Part shown: piece by piece, positions 484-40,697 of the stretch
How the letters are laid out: each line of letters opens with the position of its first letter
How positions within the stretch are numbered: the stretch's first letter is position 1
Source of the DNA: Callorhinchus milii
Lineage: Eukaryota
Assembly: GCF_018977255.1 (NCBI RefSeq)
Contig: NW_024704742.1
Span: forward strand, 136,464,001-136,528,000
Direction of reading: 5' to 3'
Length of the DNA: 64,000 bases
Notes under the pieces: model-generated
Databases searched by the model: none
What the model was told of the DNA's origin: nothing
Seen by the model: only the letters and a program-made list of their open reading frames with translations
Made by a program: the position numbers and the translations under genes

Positions 484-690
<207 letters not shown>

Positions 691-1178: not shown

Positions 1179-1331
1179 TCACACTTACAGGATCGCAACG
1201 ACCCTCCACAACTGTTGTTAGACTTCAAGCACACGTTTCCTGTCATGTTTCCGTTTAATCCATCCTTGCTCAACCTGGACTCCATTCACATCCCAGCGAG
1301 TCTGAATCTAAGTTTCCTCAACAGAGTATAG
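1179..1331 (+). CDS. myo5b: Myosin Vb, last coding exon, [50 protein letters not shown]
   Basis: Acceptor gttttgtgttaaacag| at 1178, in phase 0 with the previous exon, TAG at 1329-1331. Matches the MYO5B end as recalled ([48 protein letters not shown]). Not called in the ORF track. Confidence 0.93.
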
Positions 1332-3599
1332 AATGAACATGATCGGCTGGGAACGAGAGACAGAGGAGATGGTGGTGGGTGGGTGGGTTGGGGGATTGGG
1401 TTGAAGAGGGAGGATTGGAGACAAAATCCGAATCCTCACTGCCTTCTGATGAAGATGGGCCCTTAAAGCCTTCCCAACACTGAATGAGAAGACTGCACTA
1501 CCTCTCTTCCCAAACGCACCACCATTTCAAACCTAACGCTGAGAAGATTTCCCACCTGGGCAATAGATCTTGATTTCTTTTGATTGGTATCTTGTGAAAC
1601 TGGATCAGGGTTGAGGGCGGTGGGGGGAATGCAGAAGGGAAAGGGCCAATCTTCTTTTTGGGATCAAGAGCAAACACAACTCAACAGGCATCATCTGGTC
1701 TCACGGGTTTGAAGAGGAGAAAAGGTAGAGCGGTGAATAAAGTGGGAATTCTGTCGGGTACTGTGCATGCTCTCACAGCTCGCTCAAAGCCACACTCACT
1801 CCCTGTCCCCAATGCTTCCCAGGAATTCTCAAACTCCCGGATCGGAGTTTCCACACTCTCTCCTTTTCAGATTCGGTCATGGGCTTGTATGCGTAGACAC
1901 ACCAGCTTCGAATCAAACTTATACATCCAGTTAGGAGGCGATCACACTTTCCTGTTAGACTTTCCAGCACCTCCTCACCCCATTCACAGGGGCCTTTGCT
2001 ATTGATTTGCTTCAGAAGGCAGATTGCGATCACCATTTCCATTATTGTAGCATGCGACTATCAGGGTGGTAGAGGCCAAACTAGTCTTTTTTATTGTCTA
2101 GTAATTTCCTAAAGCAGATGTTACTATTACTTCCAGCATCCGGTCAGCGCTCTGTTCAGTATCTCATTAATCTTAAGAAGGGGAGAAAGTATCACAAACC
2201 CATTGAACCAGTTAGCTCTAGACAGTGTGTGTGTGTCTGAGATACGCGAGGAACTAGTACGAGGTTCCCCTTTACAACCAGGAGCAAAATTGATCCACCC
2301 TGTTTCCTCTATTACCAACCGTTGCCCAGTGTACTTCCTCTCTCTGTCTGTGTGTTGCGCAGGAACTAGCCTTCCAGCCGCGCCTCAAGTATTGAAACGT
2401 GGCTGGGACACAGCACCCAAAGAGGGTGTCCCATTCCGTCTTCGCATTTCCTCTTAAATTGTGGACAAATTCCACTCCTAGTTTGGCAGCCATCTTCCTA
2501 ACCCCCCCCCCAGCTCCTTTATTAAAAAGAAACCTGCTTCCAAATTACGGCAGAGTTTTAAGGATTTTTTCACCATTTCTGCGGAACTTTAAAACGTTTT
2601 AAGACAAGGCAGTCTCTCAGGCTAAGACCTGGTGGAATTTCAGGTTCAATAAGGTTTGTCAATCTGAATACAGCTCTTAGTGGCACAGGTTCAAAGTAAT
2701 AAAGCTCCTCTTAATTCAGTACTGAATCGGTTATCTCACTCCAAAGGTCCCCTGTGTGTGAGACACCGAACATGTGGCTGGTTGAGGTGGAAGGGGCTCA
2801 TTTGAGGTTGGAAGTAGGGGTATGTGATTCGGTTGGAGGCAGCTTTACTCTGCTCTTATGCTGTGCAGGGGCTGGGCTTGATATTGTTATTGGATGCTCA
2901 ATATGGCTGGGTTGAAAACTAGTTTTCTCTCCTTGTTTAGCTCCCTTCCTCTTTCTCTCTCCACCCCTCCCCTTCCCCATAAACTATAACGTCTTATAAA
3001 TGGTGGAAATTGGTGGAAATGGTTGCTTTTGAAAGAAAATGTGGTTACGAAAGATATCAGAGGTCCACAATAACAGCTCGCGTTTATAAAGTGCACGTCA
3101 CGTGGGGCAGGGTCTCGGAGAGCTTAGCAAAGGCGGATGGGGTCGGGGTCGGTTATGAAGTGGGACTTGATGGAATTTTGTAGTTACGGAAACCGGAAAC
3201 CCCTCTCCCCTACCCGTGAGGGACACTACATAAACACAAGTTGTTGTTACTGTGGATCTTCATGTATGTAAAAGTATGGAACAGGTTCCCAGGGAAACGG
3301 TGGAAGCAGAAAGTGTTGTTTGTTTCAAGAACAAATTAGATAGGTTTCTGTTAGGAAATATTATCCCGGGATACAGTATATAGTTCGGGACACGACATGT
3401 CAAGTGACTGCCGGGTTGGTGGAAGGCGAACTGGATGGACCTTGGCCTTCTCTTGCCTAGCAAATTCTTATGTTGTTATGTTCTGATATGATCTACTTCC
3501 AGAGCACAATTCCCATGTGCTGCAACTTCCGGAAGGAATCCGCCACTCGCAATTCCTTATTCGTGGAATCCTCATCGGAAACCATGGCGTGTTTAAAAA

Positions 3600-3770
3600 A
3601 AACAATGTACATATACATACAGCTATTAAACACTGGAAACTTTGCACATCTTTCAAAAACTTGTGTCTTCCTCTCCCCCCCCCCCCCCCCTTACGTAATA
3701 GAATACTTTTTTTTTCGGCTTAAGGTTGCAAATGATTATTTATTCGTTTTGTTGTAAATATAAAATGGTC
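3600..3770 (+). promoter_or_regulatory. Candidate distal end of the myo5b 3' UTR
   Basis: Pumilio-type TGTAHATA at 3606-3613 and 3753-3760, ATTAAA 3625-3630, miR-19-type TTTGCACA 3641-3648, TATAAA 3759-3764, then GT-rich sequence. AATAAA at 1736 and 2698 are alternative signals. Confidence 0.35.
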
Positions 3771-4844
3771 TGTGGGGGTGTTGGGGATTAATTTGCAGGA
3801 TATGTTAAATTAGAGATTTAGTGTGTGTGTGTGTAAGGAGGAATAGTGCAAGTCAGCGTTTTGTGTGTAAATGGCAATAATTGATCTGCTTGTGTAGGGG
3901 ATTCAGTTTTAGGATATAATATCAATCATCCTTGCAAATCATAGAATTTTATAGCACAGAAGAAGGCCATTGGGATATTATGCCTTTGCCGGCTCTTTGA
4001 AAGGAGTTATCCAACTAATCCCGCTTCCCCGATCTTTCCCCATAGCCTTGCAATTCTTTCCTTTTCAAATTCTGTACCTATCCTTTTCCCTTTTGAAAGC
4101 TGCTATGGCATCACCCCTTCAGGCAGTGCATTCCAGAACATGATGAAACGTCTCAAAGCGCTTCACAGGAAGGTGGAGTGACTGTGTTTTGTAGGCGAAC
4201 CCGGCAGCCATTTTTGTGCTTGGCAACGGCCCACAAATGAATGTCCCGATTTTTTTTACCTGGGGGATTGTTGGCAAGGAGACAGGGAGAATCTCCCTTC
4301 TCTAAGGTGTATTCAATAGGAAGTTAAGATAGATACATGAGGGAGAAAAGAATAGGTTATGCTTGAAGGCTTAGTTGAGGAAGGGCAGGAGGAGGCTCAT
4401 GTGGAGCATAAACACCGGCATAGACCAGTTGGGCCGAATGGCCTGTTTCTGTGCTGTATATTCTAATGTATTCTAATATAAGATCTATTGAGGATACTAA
4501 TATCATGGGAACAGGAAGAGGCCATTCAGCCCCTCGAGCCTGTTCTGCCATTCTGTAAGACCATGGCATATCTGTACCTCAACTCCAGTTGCCCGCCCTT
4601 GCCCCATATCCCTTGATACCCTGACCTAACAAATACCTATCCACCTCAGTCTTGAAGATGTGAATGGATCTCAGCATCCACAGCCTTCTGGGGGAGAGAG
4701 TTCCAGATTTCCACTGCACTTTGTGTGGAAAAAAAAAGTGTTTCCTGATTTCATTCCTAAACGACCGAGCTCCAATTTTAAGATGATGCCCCGCTTGTTC
4801 TGGATTCCCCCACCGCAGGGAATAGTTCCTCTGTATCTACCCTA

Positions 4845-5150
4845 GAGAATGCGCAGATGTGAGCAGGCGAGTGCTAAAGGAACGGGGAGGAGTTGTAGAA
4901 GAGGAGCAGGACCGGGGAGAGGACGTCAAACAGGTAACAACGGGGCAAACTGAGCAAGTTATTCAGGCGCAGGAGCCGCAGGGTTAGTGTGGGAGCGGGG
5001 TCAGTGCGAGAGGTGACTTTGGCAGCGAGGTCTCGGGGACGAAGACTAGTTACAGGCACCGGTGGTGAGTGGAATTCGACGCGATCATTCGCGGTGATCA
5101 GTGGGTTCAGCCGCTGAGACGCTATTTTAAAATGTCCTGCCTGAACCTAA
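4845..5150 (-). mobile_element. Probable 5' portion of an L2-clade LINE
   Basis: Pyrimidine-rich on the - strand; encodes PVTSLRPR...RLNNLLSLP, resembling the segment before the endonuclease in fish L2 ORFs. Confidence 0.4.
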
Positions 5151-5298
5151 CAGCTGAACACCCCCCCCGTGTAATCCTTTCCTCCCGCTAGTTTTTGAAT
5201 TACTGGAATCAGGTTTAGTCTTACTTTCATCATCAAAAAAAACCTAATAAATTGGTCTCTCAATCTACGACTGTTTGTGGGACACTGCTGTGTTTTTT

Positions 5299-5299
5299 N
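5299..5299. other. Ambiguous base N, possible assembly join
   Basis: Single n between two non-contiguous SINE fragments. Confidence 0.8.
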
Positions 5300-6192
5300 G
5301 GATGTTGTAGCACTCACCTCACAAGCGAGAGATCTGGGAAAATTTCCTTACTCCGCACGATTATTAATATTATTAATATTGTGCTAATAATCCCTCAAAA
5401 AATCTATAATAAAATTGGTCACTCAATCCACGGCTGTTTGTGGGACATTGCTGTACGCAATGGGCTGCCGCGTTTCGCCCACAGAATATACAGTCAATTC
5501 ACGTTACAGTGTAGTCTGTGAAGCGCTTTGAGACGTCTCAAAGAGGTGATAATGCGCTGTATCAAATGCAATGATTATTATTGTTATTATCATCATTCTC
5601 TCTCCTTCCCCCCCTCCTCCCAATAAACTTCTCTGCGTTCAAACTGTAAGCCTTGCAGTGCTGGCTCCCAGGGTATGTGTAGTTAAACAGCGGGTCAGGT
5701 CAGCACATAGACTGATGGTAAAGGATAAAGTGAGGTGGAGAGAAAACGACATTTTTTTTAAAAAAGGGACACACAATCGATTGCCTTGACTTAATTTACT
5801 AAAGTAACAAATAATAATAATGATCCTCGCATGCGATATAGCGCCTGATCATTTATTCAAGATGTCCCAAAGCGCTTCACAGAATATACTGTAAAGTGAA
5901 TGTAACTGTGTTTTGTGGGCGAAACGCGACAGGCAATTGCGCGCAATAGCGTCCCACAAACGATCGTACTCCTGTGAAGACTGATAACTAGCTGTGTGCT
6001 TAACAATGTCCGTCTTCCCAATCAATAGCCCCCACTGGGAGGGTGGGGGGGGAATGAGAGGGTGGAGAGAGAAAAGAGAGAAAAAAACAACAACTTGCAT
6101 TTATATAGCGCCCTCTACGCAGAGTGCTGTTTGATACAGTAAACTTCTGATAATTTGTCACTCCAAGGGACAAGGGCTCAGTGACAAGTTAT

Positions 6193-6521
6193 GTGGAGTC
6201 CTGTAGCTCAGTGGTTAGAGCACTCGCTTTGCAAGTGAGAGACCTGAGTTCAATTCCAGGCAGAGGGCGACACCTTGGGCAAGTTTCCTTACTCCACACG
6301 CCTAATAATAATAATAATAATCCCTCCGAAAACAATAATAAATTGGTCATTTTCAATCTACGACTGTTTGTGGGACATTGCTGTGCGCAATTGGCTGCCG
6401 CGTTCGCCCACAAATATACAGTCAATTCACTTTACAGTGTGTTCTGTGAAGCGCTTTGGGACGTTCTCCCGACGTGAAAAGCGCTATATCAAATGCAAGG
6501 ATTATTATTATTATATTATTA
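6193..6521 (+). mobile_element. Young tRNA(Ala)-headed Deu-domain SINE, short variant, full length
   Basis: A box TAGCTCAGTGG, B box GAGTTCAATTCC, TGC anticodon-like loop, Deu-like body (ctgtttgtgggacattgctgtgcgcaattggctgccgcg), L2-type 3' stem-loop, (TTA)n tail. Near-identical to the copies at 19560, 35892, 39103 and 59943. Confidence 0.9.
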
Positions 6522-6860
6522 GCTTAAGTGGCAAGTTTGACATGTGTATAAATACTGTACATAAGTAAAGGCTGGGACATTGATGACAGGGTAACAATAC
6601 TCCACAGCAGTAAATGGAGGCCGAGAGATATGTGAAACAGCCAAGAAAAAGGTCCACTATGTCTACTGGTGCTCACTCCCTCCCACTGGATCTCTTTAAT
6701 CCCGTTCCCTTGCAGCATTCCCCAATTCTAATCCCAAACCTGTAATATTATTTTGCCCCATTATGATCGAATTCCCTTTTAGAGGTGTATTTATTTTTCA
6801 GTTTCTGGTATGATCGCAGGAAATAAGTGGGTGATCTCTCAGTCACATAAAATAGTGTAG

Positions 6861-6940
6861 TAAAAACAGAAGTCGCTGGGAACACTCGGCAGGTCAGGCA
6901 GCATCTATGGAGAGAGGAAAGTGAGTTAACGTTTCAGGCC
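6861..6940. mobile_element. Fragment of a chondrichthyan Penelope-like element terminal repeat
   Basis: aaaacagaagtcgctgggaacactcggcaggtcaggcagcatctatggagagag...gagttaacgtttcagg resembles a very common shark/ray repeat (from memory); truncated where a CR1 begins. Confidence 0.55.
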
Positions 6941-6952
6941 AATCACCACATT

Positions 6953-7279
6953 GGAGAAACTATTTCCACTGGCGGGCGGGTCAGTAACCCGAGGACACTG
7001 ATTTAAAATAGTTGTTAAAAGAAACAGAGGGGAGGTGAGAAATGTTTTCGCACAGCGAGTTGTTCCGATCTGGAATGCTTTGCCTGAAAGGGGGTGGAAG
7101 CCGATTCGATAACAACTTTTAAGAGAGAATAATTTGGGGAGGACAAGTTTGCAGGGCTATGGGGAGAGAGAGAGCGGGGGAGTGGGATTGATTTGGATAG
7201 CTCTTTTCAAAGAACCGGCACAGACACGATGGGCCGAATGGCCTCCTTCTGTGCTGTATAATTCTATGATCTATGATTC
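6953..7279 (+). mobile_element. CR1 LINE 3' end
   Basis: Encodes TRGH...FAQRVV.IWNALPE; 3' UTR gggccgaatggcctccttctgtgctgta plus (tctatga)n. Related ends at about 3280-3485(+), 3939-4140(-), 4305-4480(+), 4503-4843(-), 12650-12860(+), 25040-25175(-), 31380-31690(+), 50490-50660(+), 61945-62055(-). Confidence 0.85.
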
Positions 7280-8351
7280 ACATTAAGTAGCGTTTTTGCA
7301 TAAAGATATCTCAAAAAGCATATCTCATTTTGTCGAAATCACATTTTGAATTTTATTAGGGTTATCAGAAGTATAATGTCATTTTGCTTTGGTCAGTCTG
7401 GTGTCTGATAACACGCAGAAACCCATCTCATACATAAGAATGCCCAAACCAAACAGAACTGCACGTATTCATTAAAATTTTCAGTGACTGGAATAAAGCA
7501 TTTGGGCTCTACCTTTCGCTCTCCCTGGAGGGACACATCTTGTTCACCTAATTTCGGAAAGTATTAGGTGCAAGAGATTGGGGGAAAAGGGGTAAGAGGG
7601 ATCCCAGTGTGTGCATTGGGGAGTGGGACAGGTGGAGTTTGACCAGCTAAAAACTGGGAACTCTGTTTAGTAAAGCAATCTGCTTCTTGCCCAGTTAGAC
7701 TGGTCAATGCATTCATTAACTTGTTAACTTTTATCTTTTCTCAGTGCTTTCCCCCCCCCCACCATCCTTCTTTGCACTTAGCCTATTTTGTCCTCCAGTT
7801 AATATTTCTAAGAAAAAAACACACAAATCTACAACGTGTGTTGGGGGAGAGATAATATATTTATTAATAATAAGTATTCTTTGCATTTGATATTGAGCAC
7901 CTTATCACTGCATCAAAAGGTCTCAAAGCACTTCAGAGGTTTCTGTAAAACGTGGTGATTACGTAGTATTGATTAGGAGTTAACAGTTTGCCAATTGCTT
8001 CGTTGTGAATCGCGCACAGTGCAATGATTTGAAATGCGATTTATTTATTGCTTACCTAACCATACTTGGGTTGTGCACTGTGGACCATGTGGATGACCTG
8101 TCCCCTTTTGGAAAACTGACTTGTAAAATGGAATTTATACGGTGAAACTTAAAAGCAAAATTGAAACAAGACTGTAAGGTACGCTTTTATTATCACATCG
8201 TTAAGATACTTTGACTGTAGATACGTTATGTCAAATAAAAACAGTTGGTCTATAAAAATTTATTGTCTTATGTATTAATAACAATCGTATTAGATCCAGC
8301 AGTTCTTATAGCTTTGTAGAGAATTGCTGTCCGGTATAGTGACTGTATTGT

Positions 8352-8703
8352 GGGGTAGTGGTTAGAGCACTCACCTCACAAGCGAGAGGACCCAGGTTCG
8401 ATTCCCAGGCAAGGCAAAACCTTAGGAAAGTTTCCTTACTCCACATGCCTCTGTTTACCTTGCAGTGAGTAGGAACCTGGTTGTTAGTCGATTAGCGGAT
8501 CGCTTTCCGGGACTAATAATTCCTTCAAATAAATAAAAATAATGTGGTCACTCAATCCATGACTGTTTGTGGGACACTGCTAAATACAACTGGCTGCTGC
8601 ATATAAAATATAGTCAATTCACTTTATAGTATGTTCTGTGAAGCACTTTGAGATGTCTGAATGACGTGATAAGGCGCAGTATCAAATGCAAGGATTACTA
8701 TTA
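8352..8703 (+). mobile_element. tRNA-Deu SINE, long (older) variant
   Basis: tRNA head, then gcctctgtttacctwgcagtragtaggaacc...gatcgctttcc middle segment, Deu body and (TTA)n. Similar copies at about 9718-10025(+), 11586-11925(-), 12900-13220(-), 15730-16035(-), 17110-17385(-), 25608-25942(+), 27500-27752(+), 40720-40950(-), 42020-42320(+), 50060-50407(-), 54338-54697(-), 58990-59357(-), 61343-61698(+), 63741-64000(+). Confidence 0.85.
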
Positions 8704-11700
8704 TATTTGTAAGCAAATACAGTAGCTAATTGCTATCACAGTCTTGGAAAATGTTTCCTAGACAAGTGCTTTTTAAACCATTCTCTCTGCTGTCCTGTTG
8801 AAGGTGACCAGGTAAACCTCTGTGCAGTGACACTGGCAGAACACAAGGAACATAGGAACAAGAGTCAGCCATTCGGCCTCTAGATGTTGTTCCCCCATTC
8901 TATTATTATTATTATAAGTGTCTGCCTAGACTCTGAGCTCAAAGCCCTGACGTGGGGCTTGAACCTACAACCTTCTGACTCAGTGAGAGTGCTACTGAGT
9001 GAGTCAGGCTGACTCCATGAGAGCTGTGGTAGAAAGCAATCACTTTCCAACGGCAACACTCAACACAAAGCGTAAATAAATGAGTCACTAAGCAAACTGT
9101 ACAATGGATGTACTATGACTGTATAATGACTGCAATCATCCTTCACCATTACACTGCCACAATAACGTCAGCTTTCCATCACCTCCTTAACCACCAGTTA
9201 GACTTGTTCCAAATATTGTATTACGAGTTTTAGTGAGATAAATGGAGACAAACCTTTTATAACACAATACAAATTATATTCTCCTAGAATAGAAGACTTC
9301 GCAAGGCATTTAACAATAATGGCTGGGGGTGGGTAGAGGAAAGATGACCGAACACAGTCAAGTTTATGGAGGTTGATTGAGGAGAGCAAGTTGGGAGGTC
9401 TCTGGATGTAGCTCCAGAAAGTGCGGGCAGAGAGGCTGAAAGTCCGACTTTTTCCACTGGTTGGTGAGTCGCTAATTGGAGCTTTAAGATCACCCAAAAA
9501 ACAGGTAGCTGTTTAGGGCATTTTTTAATATATAAGTGGATTATTAAAGCCAGGATTTAGTCAGTCTCAGTTATTAGTTCTCAGTCTAGGATGATGCTCT
9601 ATTGAGGTGATTGAGGAATAAACGCAGAGGAGAACTCTTTCAGACATTGTGTACAGACACAGTGGGCAGAATGAGCTCCTGTGTGCTGTAAAATTCTACG
9701 GTTGTAGCCAACTAGGAACAATCCCGGGCGGAGTGAAATGTTAGGCAAGTTTCCTTACTCCACACGCCTCTCTTTACCTAGCAGTAAGTTGGAAGCCGGT
9801 TATTAATTGATTCATGGATCGTTTTTCAGGGGATAATAACCTCTTTAAAAAAAATTGTAATTTGGTCACTCGATCCACGACTATTTGTAGGACGCTGCTG
9901 TGCGCAATTGGTTGCCGTGTTTCACCCACAAAATACAGTCAATCCACTTAACAATATATTGCGTTGAGACAACTCAACGACGTGATAAGGCGCTGTATCA
10001 AATACGAGAATTATTATTATTATTTTAAAAACACGGCTTCCAAATTTGACGTTGAATTTAAGACTTTCCTACAATTCCTTTGCGGGCGACCTTCAATTTC
10101 AGGAGAAAACGGTCAAGCAGGATAAAGTTAGGTTGAATTTCAGGCCTCTGAGACTTGTGCCTAACCTTTGTCGTGGAAGAAGGCATCGGGACATCAATGG
10201 GCGGTTTAGAAATCTGTACAAGTGCACTTCCCTGAAGAGAAAGCAGAACGCACTAAACAGAAAATCATTAGTGGACTGATAACAGTATTTCACTCCAGCA
10301 TCTTGTCAATGGCGTCATGTTCACTTTCCTGCAATATCCTTTGTCCCGGTTATGCCTCCTGTCTTTAATTACAATGCGGAAACTAATCTAAGTCAGTGTA
10401 TGTCACTCAGTTCTCTAGTTGACTGTTACAGTCTCTCTCCTGGGTCGTGAGTTGATGATTCAAACCCCCAAGTCAGGGTTTTAGCTCAAAGTCTAGGTTG
10501 CATCCCGCCAACACATGGAAATCCCAGAGATAGTTTGTTTCAATGGAACTTGCTCTCTCTCCCTGGAGGGAAGCATCCTGTTTACCTAAATCCGGAAACT
10601 ATTAGGTGCAGGTTGGCGAGAGCCAAGGCTTGGGGGGACCCCAGAATGTGCGTTGGGGTAACTGCCAGAGTCTAACCAGCTAAAAACGCATAGATTGCCA
10701 TTGATATCATCTGGCAAGCTTTCCTCCTGCTTCTCCAGCTAGGACCACCCTACAAGTTAGGGTTTTGGCTTGCAGGGTTAACAGGAGCTGAGTGGGAGGA
10801 TGCCCTGCCTCCAGTCGAAAGGACCAAAAACATCTGTCAGGCAAGTCTTTCCACCCATCCAACCCAAGTCTACTGAAAATGCTATTGCACAAGAGATTAC
10901 GTGTTCATTTTTAACACAAAACAAAAATCCCTGCTGTGCTCGAAGGGAGAAATAAGCTGCATCAAAATGAACCTGGTATTTACTGATCACTCCAATTACA
11001 AGGCAGGCAAGCTAAATTCCTAATTGATTTCCTTTCTGGAGGAAAGTTAAATATAAGGGAAAGCAATAGTGGCCTGGAAGGAAGAAAGAACCTGCAGTTG
11101 TATAGAAATTCATCACTGTAAATCTCGGAGCACTTAGCTGTAATTACTGTCAAGTGTATTGACTGTTCTCGTAAGCTAACGCAACCATTGTACGCGCTGC
11201 AAAGTCCAATCAACAGGGGAATAATTCTTAGCCCTTGAGTGTCAGTTTAGACTTGGAGTTCAAGTCCTGTTGTGAGGCTTCTAACGGAGAGGCAAGAGTG
11301 CTAGAAACTGAGCCACGATGACATCCAAATTATCAAACATACCTCAAAATGCAAGCTGTATTAATGACCTTTCCCCATCCTGCTCCCATCTTATTATATA
11401 CTTGGGAAAAGGTGACCGCCATTCTCCCATTAATAATTCACCAAATAATAATTAACTTATTGGGTGCTTATTACAATTGATTATGTGTTGCCCACAAATA
11501 TACAGTTAATTCACTTTATAGTATATTCTATGAAGCACTTTGAGATGTCTAGAAGACGTGCAAAGTGCTATATCAAATGGAAGGACTATTTATATTGTTA
11601 TAATAATCCTTGCATTTGAAATAGTGCCTTATCAGATCACAAAGAGCTTCACAGAATATATTGGAATCACTGTGTATTTTGTGGGTGAATTGTGGCAGCC

Positions 11701-14700
11701 TATTACGCACAGCAGTGTCCCACAAACAGTCGTGGATTGAATGATCCTTTTTTTGAGGGATTATTACCGCCAGAAAGCGATCCACCGGTAACTAACAACC
11801 GGTTTCTTACTTAGTGCTAGGTAAATAGAGGCTTGTGGAGTAAGGGAACTTGCCTAAGGTTTCGTTCCGACCAGGTATCAAACCCGGGTCCTTTTACTTG
11901 CGAGACAAGAGTGCTAATCACTAGACGGGATTTCACAACATATTCATTGTGCATTTTTTCCACTGCAGAATTTTGTACCTTATCTTGAACAATATCTGAT
12001 GTACAGTGACATTTCTGGGCGCTATGGGAACTGCAGCAGTGAAAGTGCATTTATTTTGAATACAATTGTTTATTAGGTGCTTATTACAACTGATTACTAT
12101 ATAAAATAATTTGGGGTTAATGTTGCAACTAATTAATTAAGGCAACTGTTTTCTGCCAATATTACTGAGCTATTGCATGGTATTGTAATTGGTTATATTA
12201 GAATGCAATATGCGCTCTCTCCCTGGAGGGATGCATCCTACCTAATTCCAGAGGGTTGGGCGCAGGTTGGGAAGAGCCAAGGCTTGGGGACAGACTGTGC
12301 GTTGAGGTACTCCAGGAGTCTAACCAGCTAAAACCCCATAGATTGCCATTGAATGTACTGGCAAGCTTTGCTGCTATTTGCCCAACTAGCACCACTCTAT
12401 CATTAGGGCTTTGGCTTGCAGGGTTAATAGAAGCTGAGTGCGATGACTCCAGTGACTGGTCCACCCTTCCATGGCTTGCCGATGTGCCAGTCTGCCTGTG
12501 TTGTCATCAGCAGTGCCCTAGGATACTGTGGACCCGCCTGGCTCAGGAACTGGACTAGAGACCGTCACAGTGGGCTGGCTCGATTCTGACAGTCCAGAGC
12601 CATGGCCTGGAAATGCATAAATCCAACTAGCCAGACCTTATTTGAACTTCTTTACATAGACTCTGAGGGTGGTAAGAACGTGGAACTCACTGCAGGAAGC
12701 TGTAATGGAAGCAGAAATCATCAACATATTTAACAGGAAACTTAATGCACACGTGAAGGAGAGGGAATAGAGGGGTTTTGGAAGGAAAGAGACTCACGTA
12801 GACTATGAACAGTAACACAGATTTGTTGAGCTGAATGGACAATTTAATTGCTCTACAGACTTTTACATATAATTGTATGCAATTCTGAATTCTGGCACAA
12901 TGATAACAATCCTTGCATTTGATATAGCACCTTATTGTGTCGTTGAGATGTCACAAATTAGTTCACAGAATATAAGGTGAAGTGAATTGACTGTATATTT
13001 TGTGGGTGAAACGCAGCAACCAATTGCACACAGCAGCGTCCCACAAACAGTCATGGATTGAGTGATCAAATTTTTTTTTGGAGGGATTATTACTGTCAAT
13101 AAAAATGATCCACCAATCGAGAAACAACAAGGTTCCTACTTACTGCTCGGTAAACAGAGGCTCGTGGAGAAAGGAAATTACCCTTAGGGTTTGCTCTGCC
13201 GGGAATCGAACCCAGGTCCACACAACATCCACATGTTGCATTGATGTAGGATGAAACCAATGCAATGGCGCTGCTCATAACAGATCATGAGAGACAGAAT
13301 TAAACATGACATTTCAACATAACTATTATACTGAACTAAATAAAATGTTTACCGTAGGATATTGATCAAAGTTATATTTACCCGCTCCTCATTATCTTGC
13401 ATTATCTGATAGCTGTCTGCGGTGAAGAGAAGCCCAGTTTAAACAACTTTTCAACCTTCACCCTCTGTTGTTTTTCAGTCAGCAGTGTCTGGCACACAGC
13501 AACCCATCACCACACAGCAACCCATCACCAACGCTTGCGAGTCCAAAAACAAACTACTCGAGTTCCACATTCTAATGGAAATTTTTGTGGGAAAATATGC
13601 ATTCTCTCTGAGTGAGGCTCCATACTCACCTAACACCAGAAGGTTTAGGCGCGGGGTAGCAAGAGCCAAGGCTTGGGGACCCCAGTGGTACTTGGAGACA
13701 TCATAATGGTGTGTTGCTGAAATTTAAGCATCTAAAACTGCACAGTTTGGCATTGTGAACACTGACCAGCTTCTTGTTACTTGCCCAGCTAGGACCACCC
13801 TTCCCATTAGGACTTTTTGCTTGTTAGGTTAATATGAACCATGTAAGAAGAATCCTAGCCCACAGTGAGTGGTTGGATGGACTGATAGGATTTTTCCATT
13901 CCTACATTGGCATACTTGCTAGTCATCCTAATTTTACCAAACTTTCAGTCATTTTTCTTCTCCCCTTATCAACATCTTCCTCCCCATCTATCATCTGTGT
14001 GAATCACTTTGAGACGTTCTCTTGATGTGAAAGGTGCTATGTAAATTGTCCCAGTGTCCTGGCCAACAATCCACCAGAAAAGATTGGTCTCTCACTTCAT
14101 GGCTGTTTGTAGGATATTAGCGTGAGCAAATTGACTGCCTTGTTTGCCTACAAAATGTGTAGTCATTGAATCCTGTGAAGCAAGTTGAGACTTTTCATTG
14201 ACGAGATATAGCGTTATAAGGAATTGAAGTAATAATCCCTCAAAACAAAATGTGGTCCCTCAATCCATTGAGGGACATTGCTGAATGCAATTGGCTGCTG
14301 TATTTCGCCCACAAAATACAGTCAATCCACTTCACTGAACAAATTGGAAAGCGCTTTGAGATGCCTAATGATGTGATAAGATGCTATATCAAATGCAAGG
14401 ATTATTATTATTAACTAAACGTTGTGAGGCATAAAATGCATTGAACATGTAGACATACTTTGTACTTGGATCCTCTATTACTTTCTTTGTTTATGCTCAA
14501 ACAGTGCAAAAGTTCAACAAATAATGCCAACTGTAGTGGGTGATATGCAAGCAATGGAATTCAGCGACTGGGTCAGAGTCTCGCTCCCAAAGCTACTTGA
14601 ATCAGAACCATGTAAATAGGAATAGAAAAATACCATCAGTCCAGCCAACCTTCACCTTTACCTTGTTGGATCATTCATCCATTTCCAGCTGTTCAATCAG

Positions 14701-15169
14701 TTATTAATAGATCTTGGCAGTTCTTTTAATCTAAATGCCCAATGCTGTGTATGTTTTGCCTATACTTAATGGTAACCAAAACTATTAGTTCAAAGTAAGA
14801 CAAGAATTAAAGTGTTGAGCTAATAGTTACAATAGTAATAATCCTTGCATTTGATATTGCGTCTTTCATGTCATCAAGATATCTTGAAGCGCTTCACGGG
14901 ATGTACTGTAAAGTGAAGTGACTATGCATTTGTAAGCAAAACATGGCAGTAAGTGGCACACAGCAGTGTACCACAAATAGCCACGGACTGAGCGACCAAA
15001 TTATTATTACAATTTGATTTAGGAGATTGTTGACCAGGACACCAGGAGAAACTCACTTCTTTTTTTAAATAGCACCGTGGAGTTTTTAACGTCCATCTAA
15101 ACAGGAAAACTGGACCTCAGTTTATCATCTCATCCTAAGGACAAGTCAAAGAACTAATAGAAATGCTGA

Positions 15170-15727
15170 GCGGATCCTCTCGACTTTGGATTTGAGCATG
15201 TCTAGCATCGCCTCGCCTAAGGATGGGCGAGGCATGAGAGGGTGGGTGGAGGAGCCGCTTGGTGATGGAAAAGAGGAGCCTGGGGTTGTCCTTGGCCTTC
15301 AAGATTTTCTTGGGAGTAGAACAACGATTTAGTGGAGGAGTAAAATTTGATCTGGGAGATCAGCCAGATCTGCGAATGGACCGATTTAAGCCAGGTGTGT
15401 TCAGCAGCACACACCTGTGCTTTAAGGGAGCTGAGGTGGTACCATGGTAATTTTCATAATTTTCATGAGTAGGTGAGTAGGTGACGGTTCGGGAAGTGAG
15501 GGGAGCAAGGGAATCAAGAGTGGTGGAGAGGGCTGTTGTGGAGGAGAGCGACCAAGAAGAATAGGTGATTGCGGGAGGAATTCCAGAAGGAGAGCTCAGA
15601 TGACTCCAAGGCAAGAGAGGTGGTGGTGGGGTGGGGGAAGTTTTTTTTCCAAGGGCGGTAGGAGATGTAGGTGGTTTGGGTGGCAGTGGGAGAGGGATTG
15701 AGGAGTAAAGGGAGATGAAGTGAGATG
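15170..15727 (-). mobile_element. L2 LINE fragment (endonuclease-RT linker)
   Basis: Degenerate TLDSLAPLTSRTV...HSQIWL...KDNPRLLFS, homologous to 24130-24910 and 38320-39100. Confidence 0.8.
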
Positions 15728-16410
15728 AAATATACTGTAAAGTGAATTTACTGTATATTTTGTGGGCGAAACACGGCAGCTTATTGCGCACAGCAGTGTC
15801 CCACAAACAGTCGTGGATTAAAGTGACCAATTTATTATTTTTTTTGAAGGAATTATTACCCCCGCCCCCGAAAAACGATCCGAGAATCGACTAACAACCG
15901 GGTTCTGAATACTGCTAGGTAAACAGAGGCGTGTGGAGTAGGGAAACTTGCTCAACATTTTACACTGTCAGGAAACAAACCCAGGTCTCTGGCTTGCGAG
16001 TTGAGTGCTCTAACCACTGAGCTACAGGACTCCACATAACAATAATCTAAAAAGTGAGGCAACAGATAAAATAAAACATTGAAACTGCAATTGAATGTTA
16101 TGAGAGGAGTTAATGCACTGGAGGAATGAGCTTCGCTGGGCACAAACACTTTTTTCATAAGACTTTTATGCTCTCATATTTTATGAGATATTAAAATGGA
16201 ATTGAATTTACAGTGATTACCTTTTATTGCTGTGTTGCTTCCATGGTAGCCTGGCAATTCTGCTTCTGTAGCAATGCTCCAAGCAGTTCAGAACCAGCGA
16301 AATAATTCATTGTAATTACTTTGTAAATTCTAGTTTCAGCTTGGGCTGAGTGGGATGTGACGGAAGCTGTGAGAGTTACCAACACAGGAAAAAAAACCCT
16401 GCAATGAGCT

Positions 16411-16850
16411 GAGTGTTAGCCTGGCTCAGTTGGTAGCGCTCTCACCTTTGAGTCAGAAGGTTGTGGGTTCAAGCCCCACATTGGGACTTGGAATCACATC
16501 ATCTAAGCTGACACTCCAAGGCAGCGCTGGGGGTGTGCTGCATTGCTGGAGATGCCATCCTTCGAATGAAATGTTAAACTGAGGCCCCAACTACCTGGTC
16601 AGATAGGCATTGAAGATCCTATTCGAAAAGAGAACCATTCGAAAAGAGAAGGGAGTTTCTCCAGGTTTCCTGGCGATCAGATAAAATTAGTCATTCGCTT
16701 CATGGACGTTTGCGGGACATTGATGTGCACAAATTGGCTGCCACTTTTGCCCATTAAAAAAAAGGCCATTTTACGGAACTGTATATTCCGTGAAGCGGTT
16801 TTGGGTGACGTTTAAGGCACTATCCTAAATGCAAGGATATTTATTATTAT
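16411..16850 (+). mobile_element. Older SacSINE1-like DeuSINE with a different tRNA head and longer Deu domain
   Basis: Head gcctggctcagttggtagc...gggttcaagcccc, then ctgacactcca...gttaaactgaggcccc...agatcc...gggagtttctcc...gtcctggc segment, then the same 3' body and tail. Fragments recur at about 110-460, 14820-15140, 22300-22460, 26440-26770, 28120-28335, 44955-45310, 45400-45570, 46180-46400, 46820-47050, 51900-52270. Confidence 0.75.
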
Positions 16851-19559
16851 AACTCTAAAGACCAGGGGGCGGGGTGGGACAGAAATTAGCAGTAGAGAAA
16901 CATATCCACTTCATGCACCCAGTGCCAGAATCATATGCTCTGGGTTAACACACACACATTTCACAGCTAACAAAGAGATGAAACCTGGACCTTCTTGATC
17001 TGTTTATTCCAATCACAAGAGCAGTCCATACTAACTGTAAACACCAGCAGCTAATCGCAATGTAATTAAGGGTTCAGACCACTCAATCTACATGTTAACC
17101 CTTTTCAAATAATAATCTTTGCATGTAATATAGAGCCATTATCACGGCTCAAAGCGCTTCACAGAATATACTGTAAAGTGAATTGACTACATTTTGTGGG
17201 TGAAACGCAGCAGCCAATTGTGCATAGAAGTGGCCCACAAACAGTCATGGATTGAGTAGCCAAAATTTTTTTAAAGGGATTATTACCCACGGAAGTGACT
17301 AACAACCATGTTCCTACTTACTGGTAGGTAAACAGTGGCAAGTGGAGTAAAGATATTTGCCTAAGGTTTCACCCTGCCCGGGACTATAACTAAGATATCC
17401 TTGATACTGCCATTGGTTCAAACTTACCGAGAAAAAAAGAGCTATAATTCATAAATAACTCCAGGCTTTTAATGCAGAATAGCTTCAGTAGAACATTATA
17501 TGCAGATGACTAAGCCAAATCATTGCAATTTATTGTGCCTGTAATTAAATTGCAGGCATAAACTATTCAAACCACTGTAGACATTTATTGCAAAGGGAAA
17601 TAAACTTTATTGCTTCCGAACCATGGGAACATTTGAAATATCTAGTCATTGTTGTAACATAAAATTAATTGGGTTCACAAAAATAGATAACATGATAAAA
17701 ATATAAAACATGATTACATGACCCAGTTCCAGTGAAGTGCTTATCCCACACTTAACATCAATGTAATTCGGTTCAGTGGGCAGCAGCCTGCTTCACGTAG
17801 CCACCCACCCACCATCTGAGGTCAGGCTTTCAGCGTATCAACTCCACTCTCTGCAACTCCAACCTAGTCGTGCCTCCTTCAAGGTTCCATCTTTGGCCAC
17901 ACTTTTGGTCATCTTTCCCCCTCACCTCCACTTGGTGCCACGCTGTGTAAAGTTTTATTATATTTGGCCATGCTTTCAATCACCTTTCCCCCGATTTCTC
18001 CCTTTCCTCATCTTGCTTGGTGTTCCAAGCTTTACTGTCTATGTAAAAGACATTAAACCAATCTCGTGTGTGAAACACACTATACGAGGTTGGAATTTTC
18101 TCTAGAAAGATTTATTTTCCTCACCAACTTAATTTAATTTTCACCAGTATGGTGTGACATAGAAGAGAAATTGGCACACCGGTTGTTCCTAAGCTACATG
18201 GCATATTAAGTGCAAAACAAGTCCAGGCGTGGTATTCTTCTGAACTTCCTGATAAATAATAATAATATTTCTTGCATTTGATATAGTGCCTTATCACGTC
18301 TTCAAGACATCTCAGTGCTTCACAGAATATGGTGTGGTGTAAAGTGAATTGACCGTATATTTTGTAAAGTATGAGAATCTAAAGTATGAGATCAAGAGGA
18401 AAAAAGAGGAAGCAAAACAACAAGTTTCTTTTATAATATATTTGTATGTATTTTTATTGTGAATTTTACATAACATGTTAAATACAAATTGTCCAGTTGT
18501 ACTTACAAAGAAATTGCATTTTCATGAGAAACACTGCTTTAAGCAACACTGAAGGCACATTCAGCATCCCAACAACAACAAATTTACATTTTTATAGCAA
18601 CTTTCACGTCAGGAAGACATCCTAAGGCACTGGAAGACAAATCCCACAAAGACTTGAAGACATTTCTCTATGGTCAAAACATCACTCCGGAATGTGATGT
18701 GCACATTAAGTTTCAGGCAATTCAGCTTTTTTTTTTGCAATGGCATTTATTTATTATAAATAAATATGTTTCTGTTCCCTGATAATTCCTGTTCTATCTG
18801 GCAACAATGTCTGTCCACCTTGCCAAATTCTGGATGGAACAGCAATTAACAGAGAAAACAAAAATGGAACAATGCTAATTCTACACTTTACCAACAATAC
18901 TTGCCTTGACTGACCTACTTATTACACTTATTCTTTTAACCACTATGCCCCAACCCTCTGCAACTCACTGCCTTTGCCTTGCCCCTCTTAACCCATCTTC
19001 AAATCATACCTGAAGACTTTCTTCTTCGACCGTGCCTTCAGTCATCTCCCCTTTCTCCCTAACTCGGCATCAAACTACACCATTGTTAAACGCTCCGAGG
19101 CTCTAACTGACTGAAGGGTGCTAGTTTTTGTTGTGATGTTGAGGACAGATCTATAACTCCAAATATCATTGAAGAGCCACTTAGGTTGGTCAATCATCAA
19201 TGGTTTGGATTACTCGAGAGCTGTCGGTTTTGTTGAGTAAAAACAAGAGCCGATTTAACCCCAGAAAAAAACATTTACCTCACAGGTGACAGACTTCACA
19301 AAGAAACACTAATAATTCAATGAGAAGCCTACCATTAGAAAGCATCAGGCAGGAGATATTTTCAGAGAAGACGAATAAAAGGGAGAAACAGAGAAAACAG
19401 AAAATTAATTAATAAATATGATTTTCAAAACGGGCAGGGGGTGTATTTAGCACTTGACCCCCACACACACAAAGCAGCCAAGATCCAAAATCATTATCAT
19501 TATTCTGAAAGGATTATTAGCCCCAGAAAGCAATCCGCCAATCAACTAACAACAAATTC

Positions 19560-19892
19560 GTGGAGTCCTGTAGCTCAGTGGTTAGAGCACTCGCTTTGCA
19601 AGTGAGAGACCTGAGTTCAATCCCAGGCAGAGGGCGAAACCTTGGGCAAGTTTCCTTACTCCACACAGAGCCTAATAATAATAATAATAATCCCTCCAAA
19701 AACCAAAAACAATAATAAATTGGTCATTTTCAATCCACGACTGTTTGTGGGACATTGCTGTGCGCAATCGGCTGCCGCGTTCGCCCACAAGAATATACAG
19801 TCAACTCACTTTACAGTGTGTTCTGTGAAGCGCTTTGGGACGTCCTCCCGACGTGAAAAGCGCTATATCAAATGCAAGGATTATTATTATTA
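19560..19892 (+). mobile_element. Young tRNA-Deu SINE, short variant, full length
   Basis: Same head, body and tail as 6193-6521. Confidence 0.9.
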
Positions 19893-20222
19893 AATTACAT
19901 TTGTACAGCGCCTTTCACGTCAGGAGCAGCTGGGTTCCCACGTACTGCTAGATAAGCTGGTTTCCAGTGGAGTAAGGAAACGCCAGCGTAGATCATGGTC
20001 AGTTTCTGTGCTGTATATTCTATGCAATTCTATGTTCGCCCAGAAATTGAACCGGGGACCTCTCGCTTGCAAGGCAAGTGCACTACACTACAGGATTCAT
20101 GATTCAGGATTCAAGTCCAATACACTACAGGGTTCACAAACACTCTGCGGGGACTCCGGGTCCTATTCCGGGCGTGAAAAGCGCTATATCAAATGCAAGG
20201 ATTATTATTATTATTATTATTT

Positions 20223-20307
20223 GGTCTCAGACATCTGTCAGCACTCATTCCATCATTAATGTCCACTCTGGAACTCGGATTGCGCAGTGAACTAGTCATC
20301 ATTGACC
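20223..20307 (-). ncRNA. U91 / mgU4-8 box C/D domain (3' domain of the scaRNA), guide for 2'-O-methylation of U4 C8
   Basis: C box ATGATGA (20296-20302), D' CCGA (20275-20278), C'-like TGATGG, D box CTGA (20227-20230), terminal stem GGTC/GACC. 10-nt complementarity to U4 UUGCGCAGUG; the 5th nt upstream of D' pairs with C8. Confidence 0.92.
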
Positions 20308-20681
20308 GGGTTTAGAGACAGACTCCTGGTTCGGGAAAGCGATGGGTGGCTGTTCCAAGACCTTATCTTAATCTTAAGAAGAAAAAGAGAAGGGGAATGA
20401 AGCAAATGTATATTTTTTTGGGGGGGAGGGAGGGAGGGAGCGGACGGGGAAAGCAAATTTAAAGAAGCACAGAGAAAAGGCGTTGTATCAAATGCAAGGA
20501 CTATTATTATTATTATTATTCGGGGTGAAGCAGGACAAATCCCCTTTAAATTTGCGGGGGGTGTGGGGGCGTCGTGTCCCCCTTTATAAATTTGCTTCGG
20601 CCCATCTTAAAAGGGTGAAACTTGAGGAGAAAAAATAGAGAAACGAAGAGGGCCGCGGCTTTTTCTGAGGTAAATTGAGCG

Positions 20682-20768
20682 CATCCATCGCCGGAGAAGG
20701 TTCTAATCACTTCGGGGGCTCTCGCCCCCGATCATATAAGGAAAATCCTGACGCTCACCTGGTGGATG
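20682..20768 (-). ncRNA. mgU12-22 C/D-like domain (5' domain of the scaRNA), guide for 2'-O-methylation of U12 G22
   Basis: Guide ATTTTCCTTA (20737-20746) is complementary to U12 UAAGGAAAAU. D' ATGA at 20732-20735 places +5 on G22. It is followed by an 8-bp hairpin with a GAGA tetraloop (20712-20731) and C'-like GTGATTA (20704-20710). CATCCA/TGGATG bracket the domain. C and D boxes are degenerate. Confidence 0.82.
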
Positions 20769-21292
20769 TGTGTGTGAGTGTGTGTGGGGGTGTGGGGCTG
20801 AAGAAACGGTATTAAATAAACTCACTGAGGACGCACAAAGGCCTCACCACACAGCCCGGACACGAGCCGCCATCGCCTTCCCGCCCCTTCCGAAGCCGCT
20901 CTCCAGCCGAGAAGCTTCCACGCCGCTCAACCTAACCCGCTCGGCTTGTCCCGCCCTCACGCCGCGCGCTCGCTCGCTCGGGCGCCGCCGATTGGACGGT
21001 CTCCCGCCGGCTCTGGCGTTCGTATGGACGCGCCGGGCCGTCAATCATCGTGCGTCACCACGTCTCGCGGGAGCAGCAGGCGTAAGGCGTAAGGCGACAA
21101 CCGAGCGTGATGCACGCGGTCCCCCCGCCTCCCCGCTGCTTTCCCGCTCTTCCATTGGCCAAGCGCGTGTCAATCGTCGCCGCCTCGCTTTCTGATTGGC
21201 TTCCGCTGGGCTGTGGGCGGGGCGCTTGGGGGCAGTGAGTTGGTGCTGTGAGTGACCTTTGGGTCTGTGGCAGTGGTTGTGAGTCTGTGATG

Positions 21293-34633
<13,341 letters not shown>

Positions 34634-35891: not shown

Positions 35892-36213
35892 TGGAGTCCT
35901 GTAGCTCAGTGGTTAGAGCACTTGCTTTGCAAGCGAGAGACCTGAGTTCAATTCCAGGCAGAGGGCGAAACCTTGGGCAAGTTTCCTTACTCCACACAGA
36001 GCCTAATAATAATCCCTCCAAAACAAAACAATAATAAATTGGTCATTTCCAATCTACGACTGTTTGTGGGACATTGCTGTGCGCAATTGGCTGCCGCGTT
36101 CGCCCACAAATATACAGTCAACTCACTTTACAGTGTGTTCTGTGAAGCGCTTTGGGACATCCTCCCGACGTGAAAAGCGCTATATCAAATGCAAGCATTA
36201 TTATTATTATTAT
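35892..36213 (+). mobile_element. Young tRNA-Deu SINE, short variant, in the putative acaa2 3' UTR
   Basis: Same head, body and tail as 6193-6521. Confidence 0.9.
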
Positions 36214-38319: not shown

Positions 38320-40697
38320 GACCACCGCTTAAGCTCCCTCAACACCTCTGTACCTCTTCTCCCTTCTCAACCCTCTACCATCACATACCGTCCTAGGAAT
38401 TTTTTTTCGTCCCTTTCCACTGCCCTGAAGTCATCTGAACTCCTACACCTCTGGCCCTCACTGACCGATCTACCGTCCTTGCTCTCATTTCTCCACAACT
38501 CCCTCTCCTCCATTCTAGACTCCCTTGCCCCTCTCACCTCCTGAACTGCCTCGTACTCCCGTAAATCTCCCTGGTACACCAGCCATCTCCGTTCCCTCAA
38601 GGCACAAGTGCGAGCTGCCGAACGCGCCTTGACCAAATCCAAACTAACAGTCCATCGGCAGATTTGGCTTCATCACACCAAGACCTACTGCTGCGCTCTT
38701 GCCTCCGCCAAATCCTCCTTCTACTCCAAGGTTATCTTGGAGGCAAAGGACAACCCCAGGCTTCTCTTTTCCACCACAAACTGTCTCCTCCATTCACCTT
38801 CCCATACCTAGTCCATCCTCTCCTCAAACTCCAACTGTGGGGATGCTGGACTTACTCGAATCAAAAATCGAGGGGATACGTTCAGCCACATCTGGTCTGT
38901 CCACAGCCACCCCCACATCACCTCTCCCTAATGATCCACCTCCACCCATCCCCCCCTATACTCCTTCGACCCTATCTCTCCCTCCTCCCTCACCACGACT
39001 GTCCGCAAACTCAAACCCACCACCTGCTCCCTCGATCCCTCTGCCTCCCCGTCCTCCTCGACCTCTCTGCCGTCTTCGACACTGTCAACCACTCCATCCA
39101 TCGTGGAGTCCTGTAGCTCAGTGGTTAGAGCACTCGCTTTGCAAGAGGGAGACCTGAGTTCAATTCCAGGCAGAGGGCGAAACCTTGGGCAAGTTTCCTT
39201 ACTCCACACAGAGCCTAATAATAATCCCTCCAAAACAAAACAATAATAAATTGGTCATTTTCAATCTACGACTGTTTGTGGGACATTGCTGTGCGCAATT
39301 GGCTGCCGCGTTCGCCCACAAATATACAGTCAATTCACTTTACAGTGTGTTCTGTGAAGCGCTTTGGGACGTCCTCCCGACGTGAAAAGCGCTATATCAA
39401 ATGCAAGGATTATTATTATTATTATTATCCTCATACACTGCCTCTCCTCTTTACTTAATCTTCACGGATCTGCCCTGGCCTGGTTCGACTCTTATCTCTC
39501 TCACCTTTGTTGCCTCTAATGCACTGTCACATCTGGCGTCCTCCAGGGCTCTGTCCTTGGCCCTCTCCTCTTTAATATCTATATGCTCCCCCTTAGTGCC
39601 ATCATCCACAAACATGGGGTCAACTTCCATATGTATGCGGATGACACCCAACTCTATCTTTCTGCTTCCACCCTCAACTCCAGGACCACTGCTGTCCTGA
39701 CAGACTGTCTGTCGGACATCAAGTCCTGGATGATGGCAAATTTCCTACAGTTGAATGTGATCAAGACTGAGGCCCTCCTGATTAGCTCGCGCCAGCGACT
39801 CAGCACCTCAGGTTCTAGCAGCGTCAACCTCCATGGTTTCACACTACAACTCACCAAGCCAGTCAGGAACTTAGGTGTCTTGTTCGACCCTCATTTGTCT
39901 TTTCTTCCCACATCCAAGTCATGACCCACTCAGCCTTCCCTCACTTAATAATATAATAATAATAATAATCCTTGCATTTGATATAGCACTTTTCACGTCG
40001 GGGGGACGTCCCAAAGCGTCCTTGCGTACCCAAGCACTTGCGTAACATCGCTCGAATCCACCACTACCTCACCCCTCTGACCGCTGAAACACTTGTTCCT
40101 GTCTTCATCACCTTCACGCTTGACTATGAAAACGCTCTGCTTGTCGGCCTTCCCATCTCCTCCCTCCACAGGCTGTAGATAATCCACAACTCTGCAGCCC
40201 GTGTCCTCTCCTGCACCAAACTCCATGACCCCATCTCTCCGACTCTCGCCCGACTCCACTGGCTCCCTATCCTTCAGAGGATGCAGTTCAAGATCCTGAT
40301 CCTCACCTACAAAGCCCTCCATGGCCTCGCCCTACCCTACCTCTGCAACCTCCTAACCCCCTACCAATCCGCCCGCTCCCTCCGCTCAGCCGGCTCTGTC
40401 CTGCTCCACGTCCCCTGACACACCTGCCCCACCATTGGCGGGAGAGCCTTCAGCCACTCTGCCCCCAACCTCTGAAATTCCATCCCTCAATCACTCCACC
40501 TCGCCCCCTCCTTAGCCTCCTTCAAGTCAATCCTCAAAACCCTCCTTTTCGACCATGCCATCCCCTTCCCCTCCCTTCCCTTCTCCCTCCCTGACCCCAG
40601 CTCGGGTCGGAAATACTGTACACTGTCCAACGCCTTGGGAGGTCCTCCCAATGTGAAAGGTGCTATACAAATGTAATCTTGCTGTTGCTGTTATTGT
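38320..40697 (+). mobile_element. Degenerate L2 LINE (linker, RT, 3' tail) with internal deletions and nested SINE sequence
   Basis: [40 protein letters not shown] motifs; tail ccttgggaggtcctcccaatgtgaaaggtgctatacaaatgtaa followed by TTG-like repeats. Confidence 0.9.
39103..39428 (+). mobile_element. Young tRNA-Deu SINE nested in an L2 RT fragment
   Basis: Interrupts the L2 sequence ...DTVNHSI|L...; same consensus as the other young copies. Confidence 0.9.

Follow-up and report, generated by a model that had tools for sequence, protein, structure and literature searches.

A probable chimaera orthologue of SCARNA17, with predicted guides for U12 and U4 snRNA, head-to-head with ACAA2 in Callorhinchus milii

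The window analysed here (i.e., the whole 64,000-nt stretch from Callorhinchus milii, positions 136,464,001 to 136,528,000 of contig NW_024704742.1 in RefSeq assembly GCF_018977255.1) contains a minus-strand locus with two C/D-type RNA domains and, on the plus strand, the protein-coding gene ACAA2, with a likely bidirectional promoter between the two (Table 1). Positions are those of the window throughout.

Table 1. Features of the locus, with window coordinates, strand and the evidence for each
Feature	Position	Strand	Evidence
SINE 3' tail adjoining the 3' end of the RNA	20150..20222	+	repeat cover (20150-20224), self-BLAST
3' C/D domain (U91/mgU4-8), 85 nt	20223..20307	-	Rfam RF00283
Element before box D	20231..20241	-	comparison with human, Rfam and SNORD16
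D' antisense element for U4 snRNA	20279..20290	-	pairing with human U4
Linker, 377 nt, nested helices predicted	20308..20684	-	cover by probable RNA contigs
SINE 3' tail with (TAT)n in linker, antisense to the RNA	20450..20522	+	tail motif, self-BLAST, X1 contig 20241-20492
5' C/D-like domain (mgU12-22)	20685..20762	-	RF00492 block, siRNA match, fold
D' antisense element for U12 snRNA	20737..20746	-	pairing with human U12 primer
5' leader	20763..20902	-	probable RNA contig ends 20876 and 20893, primer likeness
Bidirectional CpG-island promoter (likely)	20903..21264	.	GC 0.67, CpG o/e 1.1
ACAA2 (mitochondrial 3-ketoacyl-CoA thiolase)	21290..34633	+	PDB 4C2J, tblastn exon map

The ACAA2 gene looks intact, with ten coding exons, the first of which (21290-21308) encodes MMALLR and is followed by a donor at 21309, while the other nine were mapped by tblastn up to 34630. 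For two of the exons the best match was the human mitochondrial thiolase 4C2J. Exon 2 shares 98% identity with ACAA2 of Callorhinchus milii, and none of the other 119 proteins listed exceeds 82%. The start shows two in-frame ATGs, the same as in the C. milii protein record. The RNA gene is intergenic and lies head-to-head with ACAA2, which is the synteny of SCARNA17; human U91 and ACAA2 are described as a bidirectional pair (PMC3082894). The promoter holds CCAAT on the minus strand at 20991, 21154 and 21195 (about 1.1 would be expected by chance per 420 bases) and GC boxes at 20951 and 21215, and the motif scan of 20903-21264 found neither a TATA nor a Staf core. On the other side of the RNA gene, inspection of the plus-strand frames of 1-20000 by eye revealed no gene that could be its downstream neighbour. 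Some teleost gene models (P0030, P0039, and P0065) have ACAA2 fused with ribosomal-protein domains (PF01159, PF03868); these fusions are probably merged neighbour genes and hint at a different neighbourhood in teleosts.

Fragments of LINE reverse-transcriptase frames were seen by eye in introns and flanks (24215-24976, 39520-39924, 42346-43608, and 49119-49889), and eight of the nine Rfam matches at gathering level were tRNA-like SINE heads. The tRNA calls by ARAGORN and Rfam (6198-6268, 19565-19635, 35896-35966, 54623-54694, and 55993-56064) are not likely to be tRNA genes; they mark the heads of a tRNA-derived SINE that is abundant and ends in a (TAT)n tail. As SINE heads, the calls near the locus were rejected as parts of the RNA gene.

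The 3' domain of the RNA gene had been described in the initial annotation, whose quoted 85-nt minus-strand sequence agrees in every letter with window 20307-20223. Its stem and its C, D' and D boxes are present as stated there, i.e., a 4-bp terminal stem (GGUC/GACC), box C AUGAUGA (20302-20296), D' CCGA (20278-20275), and box D CUGA (20230-20227), together with a C' box, AUGAUGG (20256-20250), all on the minus strand. The covariance model RF00283 aligned over its full length (model positions 1-83 of 83) and scored 56.9 bits (E 1e-10), above its gathering score of 40, which makes the domain a member of this family. The pattern of C box, D box and exact 4-bp stem occurs once in the window, at this domain, and in 2 of 100 dinucleotide shuffles. 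A piece of the human scaRNA17 mgU4-8 probe (PMC5612246) matched the domain at 17 of 19 positions as its single match in the window, with one also found in 2 of 100 shuffles. The folding energy of the domain was no better than that of shuffles (z 0.27).

Against the 5' end of human U4 as printed in PMC13253345, which may differ from chimaera U4, positions -2 to -11 before D' form ten consecutive Watson-Crick pairs and position -12 forms a G-U pair. Base -5 (G) sits opposite C8 of human U4, so that C8 takes the fifth position before D', as in SCARNA17, and together with the RF00283 match this upholds the proposal of a U91-type domain with U4 C8 as its target. The D' guide agrees with the Rfam alignment at 10 of 10 bases, and U4 Cm8 is assigned to scaRNA17 in PMC7960923. 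An exact 10-mer of the U4 guide complementarity also occurs at 22203-22212 inside a SINE body, where it is probably due to chance because the SINE core is similar; given this additional copy, the 10-mer taken alone is weak evidence. The claim that the mammalian domain accumulates as a processed fragment agrees with PMC5612246 and PMC7648615.

A second guide before box D had also been suggested. We found it unsupported, because conservation in register is lacking and the pairing that the human element makes with SNORD16 is broken. Six of the 11 bases are as in human, and of the five bases at -3 to -7 one agrees with the Rfam alignment, the base at -5 being among those that depart from the consensus. 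The human element was proposed by Poole et al. (PMC5612246) to pair with SNORD16 and to lower methylation of 18S A484, and these authors found no verified rRNA target for it. All 11 bases of the human element pair with the SNORD16 loop, whereas the chimaera element forms six Watson-Crick pairs and one G-U pair of 11 with the same human loop (longest run 4), with a duplex energy of -6.1 kcal/mol as compared to -16.2 kcal/mol for the human element; judged against human SNORD16, the 11-nt complement of the loop that marks the human "regRNP17" is not present. The 3' domain might nevertheless double as a regulatory RNP like regRNP17, its element pairing with SNORD16 or guiding a second methylation, given that the CUGA and the C' box upstream of the element are conserved, that the element can be fitted to the human SNORD16 loop in a bulged duplex of -6.1 to -8.9 kcal/mol, and that the human model has knock-down support (PMC5612246). 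With the pairing reduced from 11 of 11 and the register lost relative to both human and Rfam, we consider this unlikely, and from sequence comparison the element would seem to hold neither a conserved guide nor a conserved SNORD16 pairing.

Upstream on the RNA strand, at a distance of 377 nt from the 3' domain, lies a second C/D-like domain. It has a CCA/UGG stem, a non-canonical C-like box (GUGAGC, 20758-20753), D' AUGA (20735-20732), C' GUGAUUA (20710-20704), and a non-canonical D-like box (GCGA, 20691-20688), all on the minus strand, with an 8-bp hairpin carrying a GAGA tetraloop between D' and C'. By the geometry of kink-turns, the altered boxes would still pair mutually, forming G-C and C-G beside the two G-A pairs (GUGAGC with GCGA). 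The guide sequence of this domain is AUUUUCCUUA. Its base -5 (C) stands opposite the first G of UAAGG in human U12, which we take to be the Gm22 site. The guide forms ten consecutive Watson-Crick pairs with the human U12 primer given in PMC4980772, which may differ from chimaera U12, so that, against human U12, an upstream non-canonical domain carries a U12 guide at the Gm22 site as in SCARNA17. Gm22 of U12 is assigned to scaRNA17 in PMC7960923, and the boxes of human mgU12-22 are likewise described as non-canonical (PMC5612246).

By score, this 5' domain is not filed under RF00492, because its 14.5 bits (E 2.7, model positions 24-126 of 144) fall below the gathering score of 75; it ranked first among four weak matches in 20640-20900 and did not appear in a 3-kb scan. 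Within it, a 17-nt block including the U12 guide and D' is identical to the RF00492 consensus. A piece of a human scaRNA17 siRNA (PMC5612246) matched the domain at 18 of 19 positions as its single match in the window (1 of 100 shuffles also gave one), and the siRNA and probe pieces match the chimaera locus on one strand with their human order kept. The 5' domain folds somewhat better than shuffles (z -2.08, with 5 of 200 shuffles as good). For the initial annotation this means that the identity of the 3' domain holds and its isolation does not, as the supposed lone island would be the 3' half of a two-domain SCARNA17 gene.

The surroundings of the 3' domain are similarly mixed. The SINE tail motif occurs in 38 copies in the window and in none in shuffles; the tail at 20150-20222 flanks the RNA with (AAU)n as read on the RNA's own strand, and that at 20450-20522/20524 sits inside the larger gene, between its two domains. 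The earlier picture of an island between SINE debris is accurate on the 3' side, where the tail abuts the domain, and fails on the 5' side, where some 140 nt of flanking sequence are close to unique (self-BLAST found no match to 20399 and at most one to 20449). At the other end of the gene, the sequence that begins at 20902 is similar to the human 5' primer, a weak pointer by which the transcript would likely start there. In the predicted fold of the RNA, a 14-bp helix joins leader 20883-20870 with linker 20345-20332, just before the 3' domain (pair probability 0.97), and two nested helices (20598-20585 with 20412-20399, and 20555-20544 with 20464-20453) close a loop containing most of the linker SINE tail. 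The shuffle counts are 9 of 2000 as good for the leader clamp and 18 of 2000 for the nested pairing, but the choice of segments was made with the fold already in view. Among the minus-strand 60-mers of the window, 27 of 2130 pair with the leader equally well, and the fold of the whole RNA was not significantly better than that of shuffles (z -0.78, 4/20). The clamp and nested helices would likely loop out the SINE tail, which we offer as a lead only.

We then compared the locus with assembled sequencing contigs. Among the 14 runs listed with the stretch, eight were guessed to be RNA (two studies) and none is on record as RNA; four were compared over 20000-21450, i.e., the probable RNA runs X1 (study P1), X2 and X3 (both study P2), and the DNA-like run X9. 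Contigs of X1 lie at 20241-20492 and 20529-20876, those of X2 at 20261-20430, 20529-20796, and 20767-20893 (where the contig runs into adapter), and those of X3 at 20244-20419 and 20529-20787, plus 21265-21306 on ACAA2 exon 1. The probable RNA contigs of three runs and two studies, which are strandless and whose RNA status is a guess, together cover about 20241-20893, and none crosses the masked repeat at 20493-20528, hence none spans the whole RNA. Cover is interrupted in X2 at 20441-20489 and absent in X3 at 20833-20881; gaps of this kind prove nothing, and matching contig ends are a weak hint only. Over the promoter (20931-21224), X1, X2, and X3 have no cover, while the DNA-like X9 continues. 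No splice joint was found in X1-X3 over 20000-21450, and the contig pattern is consistent with a single unspliced RNA of 670-680 nt that extends from about 20900 to 20223.

Within the species, 13 variants fall in 20223-20762, of which 11 are in the linker (several in homopolymers), one is at 20259 between D' and C' of the 3' domain, one is at 20699 before the D-like box, and none is in a box or guide. The contrast between domains (2) and linker (11) was not significant (p = 0.36; lengths of 162 and 378 were used, the final limits giving 163 and 377). The purifying selection suggested earlier is thus borne out by the conservation between human and chimaera and not by the within-species variant test. 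The window allele at 20259 differs from all three covering runs and that at 20604 from all four; each is either a private allele or an assembly error.

These data bear on whether the gene works as a two-domain unit. One alternative is a lone U91-type snoRNA, with only the 3' domain functional and the U12-like domain a decayed relic, which would account for the non-canonical C and D boxes upstream and for a score far under the RF00492 cut-off; moreover, the human 5' domain does not accumulate after processing (PMC5612246). A relic of this kind would hardly be expected to keep a U12 guide and D' in a 17-nt block identical to the Rfam consensus, box changes that pair mutually, no variant in guide or boxes, and cover by probable RNA contigs, and we regard it as quite improbable. 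Another alternative, that two separate intronic snoRNAs derive from a spliced non-coding host, an older state that was later fused in mammals, would be served on the RNA strand by a good-scoring donor at 20758 (CAG/GTGAGC), by two donors of lower score (20847 and 20825), and by an acceptor-like AG at 20373 with its long tract of pyrimidines. The acceptor at 20373 is read through in all three probable RNA runs, the three donors are crossed as well, the interval is free of joints, and the "donor" at 20758 is the C-like box itself, all of which makes a spliced host very improbable; a minor spliced form is conceivable, as contigs can drop rare forms. By approximate splice-site weights, this C-like box is the best-scoring 5' splice-site look-alike in 19000-21400, and it is unused in the contigs. 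Finally, a silent pseudogene or chance match, which could appeal to the guessed RNA status of the runs, is nearly refuted by the E value of 1e-10, by two domains in order with human synteny, and by cover confined to the predicted RNA.

Overall, we read the locus as the chimaera orthologue of SCARNA17 (mgU12-22/U4-8), a predicted dual guide for U12 G22 and U4 C8, with a probability of roughly 85%. Orthology is likely because the locus holds both domains in order, both guides as matched to human targets, ACAA2 as head-to-head neighbour, and joint-free cover by probable RNA contigs. The proposed mechanism is drawn from the human gene and the work on it, in that human scaRNA17 is described as independently transcribed (PMC2811027, PMC3349704, and PMC7648615), and Drosha/DGCR8 and a single-stranded 3' flank have been implicated in release of its fragment (PMC7648615). 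In the chimaera, RNA polymerase II would start near 20900 in the CpG promoter common to ACAA2 and produce an unspliced RNA of about 670-680 nt. Two kink-turns, one per domain, would load the core C/D proteins, the usual U-U and G-C pairs being replaced by G-C and C-G in the 5' kink-turn, and fibrillarin, probably acting in Cajal bodies, would methylate the snRNA base that pairs with position -5 of each D' guide. The 3' end of the RNA is probably set by the canonical 3' domain, which may be excised as a stable piece of 80-85 nt, for which the (AAU)n SINE tail would provide a single-stranded 3' flank, and the long linker would serve as a tolerant spacer.

With the two-part design and the ACAA2 neighbour as in human, the full two-domain SCARNA17 was likely present already in the ancestor of jawed vertebrates and may have been lost later on. 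A Xenopus survey gives the location of scaRNA17 as "?" and U4 Cm8 as not detected, and a chicken survey assigns U4 C8 to snoRNAs in RPL23A and RFWD2 (PMC2653536); because neither the SCARNA17 gene nor U4 Cm8 was found in Xenopus, the chimaera locus has modest evolutionary value. We tentatively hypothesize, at somewhat less than even odds, that SCARNA17 and the promoter shared with ACAA2 were present in the jawed-vertebrate ancestor and were lost in frogs together with U4 Cm8, that the chimaera gene makes a 670-680 nt RNA with a clamp-held SINE tail, and that the SNORD16 role was a later add-on. If true, this would offer a natural comparison for the purpose of U4 Cm8 and of the released fragment.

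The RNA family and its mechanism are already known, and the 3' domain passes the Rfam cut-off, so that automatic annotation would flag it as SCARNA18. Marz et al. 2011, who reportedly surveyed the homologues of unusual sno/scaRNAs across animals, may already list some from fish. Our literature search found no fish SCARNA17 record, with the founding paper (Tycowski et al. 2004), Marz et al. 2011, and Rfam members as sources that may cover fish, and no paper with Callorhinchus, snoRNA, and scaRNA together; SCARNA17 and shark go unmentioned in the available text of PMC13736004, and a search of the PMC2832892 supplements for such fish records gave no match. Scans of metagenomes gave no match to the 3' domain. 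The 17-nt block with the U12 guide was present at 117 loci, and BLAST detected the 3' domain at none of them; three of these had an upstream C-like motif and one an 8-nt piece of the U4 guide, and nine that were inspected by eye were rejected as chance matches. What is added here is the 5' U12 domain missed by Rfam, the limits of the whole gene, and a gene neighbourhood in a cartilaginous fish that is like the human one, and the chimaera sequence would improve the RF00492 model.

In comparison with known systems, the closest is human SCARNA17, located at hg18 chr18:45594391-45594811 (421 nt), of which U91 is the 83-nt 3' part (chr18:45594729-45594811; PMC6984369). The Rfam name of RF00283, "SCARNA18", clashes with human scaRNA18, which is U109, an H/ACA RNA on chr5 (PMC6984369), and leads to a wrong name in automatic annotation; identity with human scaRNA18, which would call for an H/ACA RNA that guides a U1 modification, was rejected, as the boxes found are of the C/D type, the guide is one for U4, and no H/ACA family matched at 20223-20307. 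Human SCARNA17 and the chimaera gene have in common two C/D domains in one order, U12 and U4 guides at D', non-canonical 5' and canonical 3' boxes, an RNA that ends with the 3' domain, and a head-to-head ACAA2. They differ in length (about 670-680 nt in chimaera), in the 377-nt linker with its SINE tail, in the D' of the 3' domain (CCGA in chimaera, CUGA in human), in base -12 of the U4 guide (U, forming the G-U wobble, as compared to C in human), and in the diverged element before box D. Relative to the Rfam models, the chimaera 5' domain has its 8-bp tetraloop hairpin between D' and C' where RF00492 has a longer insert, and the 3' domain matches U91 (RF00283) over its full length with an unaligned D'-C' spacer of 16 nt versus 12. 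Between human and chimaera, the boxes and both D' guides are thus kept, while the linker length and the SNORD16-pairing element are changed, a contrast of relevance to the human mgU4-8 fragment, whose role is debated. SCARNA2 (mgU2-25/61) and SCARNA9 (mgU2-19/30) are likewise two-domain C/D scaRNAs processed to fragments of 70-80 nt, and SCARNA2 has its own Pol II promoter and a 3' end set by the RNA itself (PMC2811027). Both of these have U2 as their target and contain UG-rich motifs to which TDP-43 binds; human scaRNA17 has no such motifs (PMC6412121), and the longest UG run in the chimaera RNA is three repeats.
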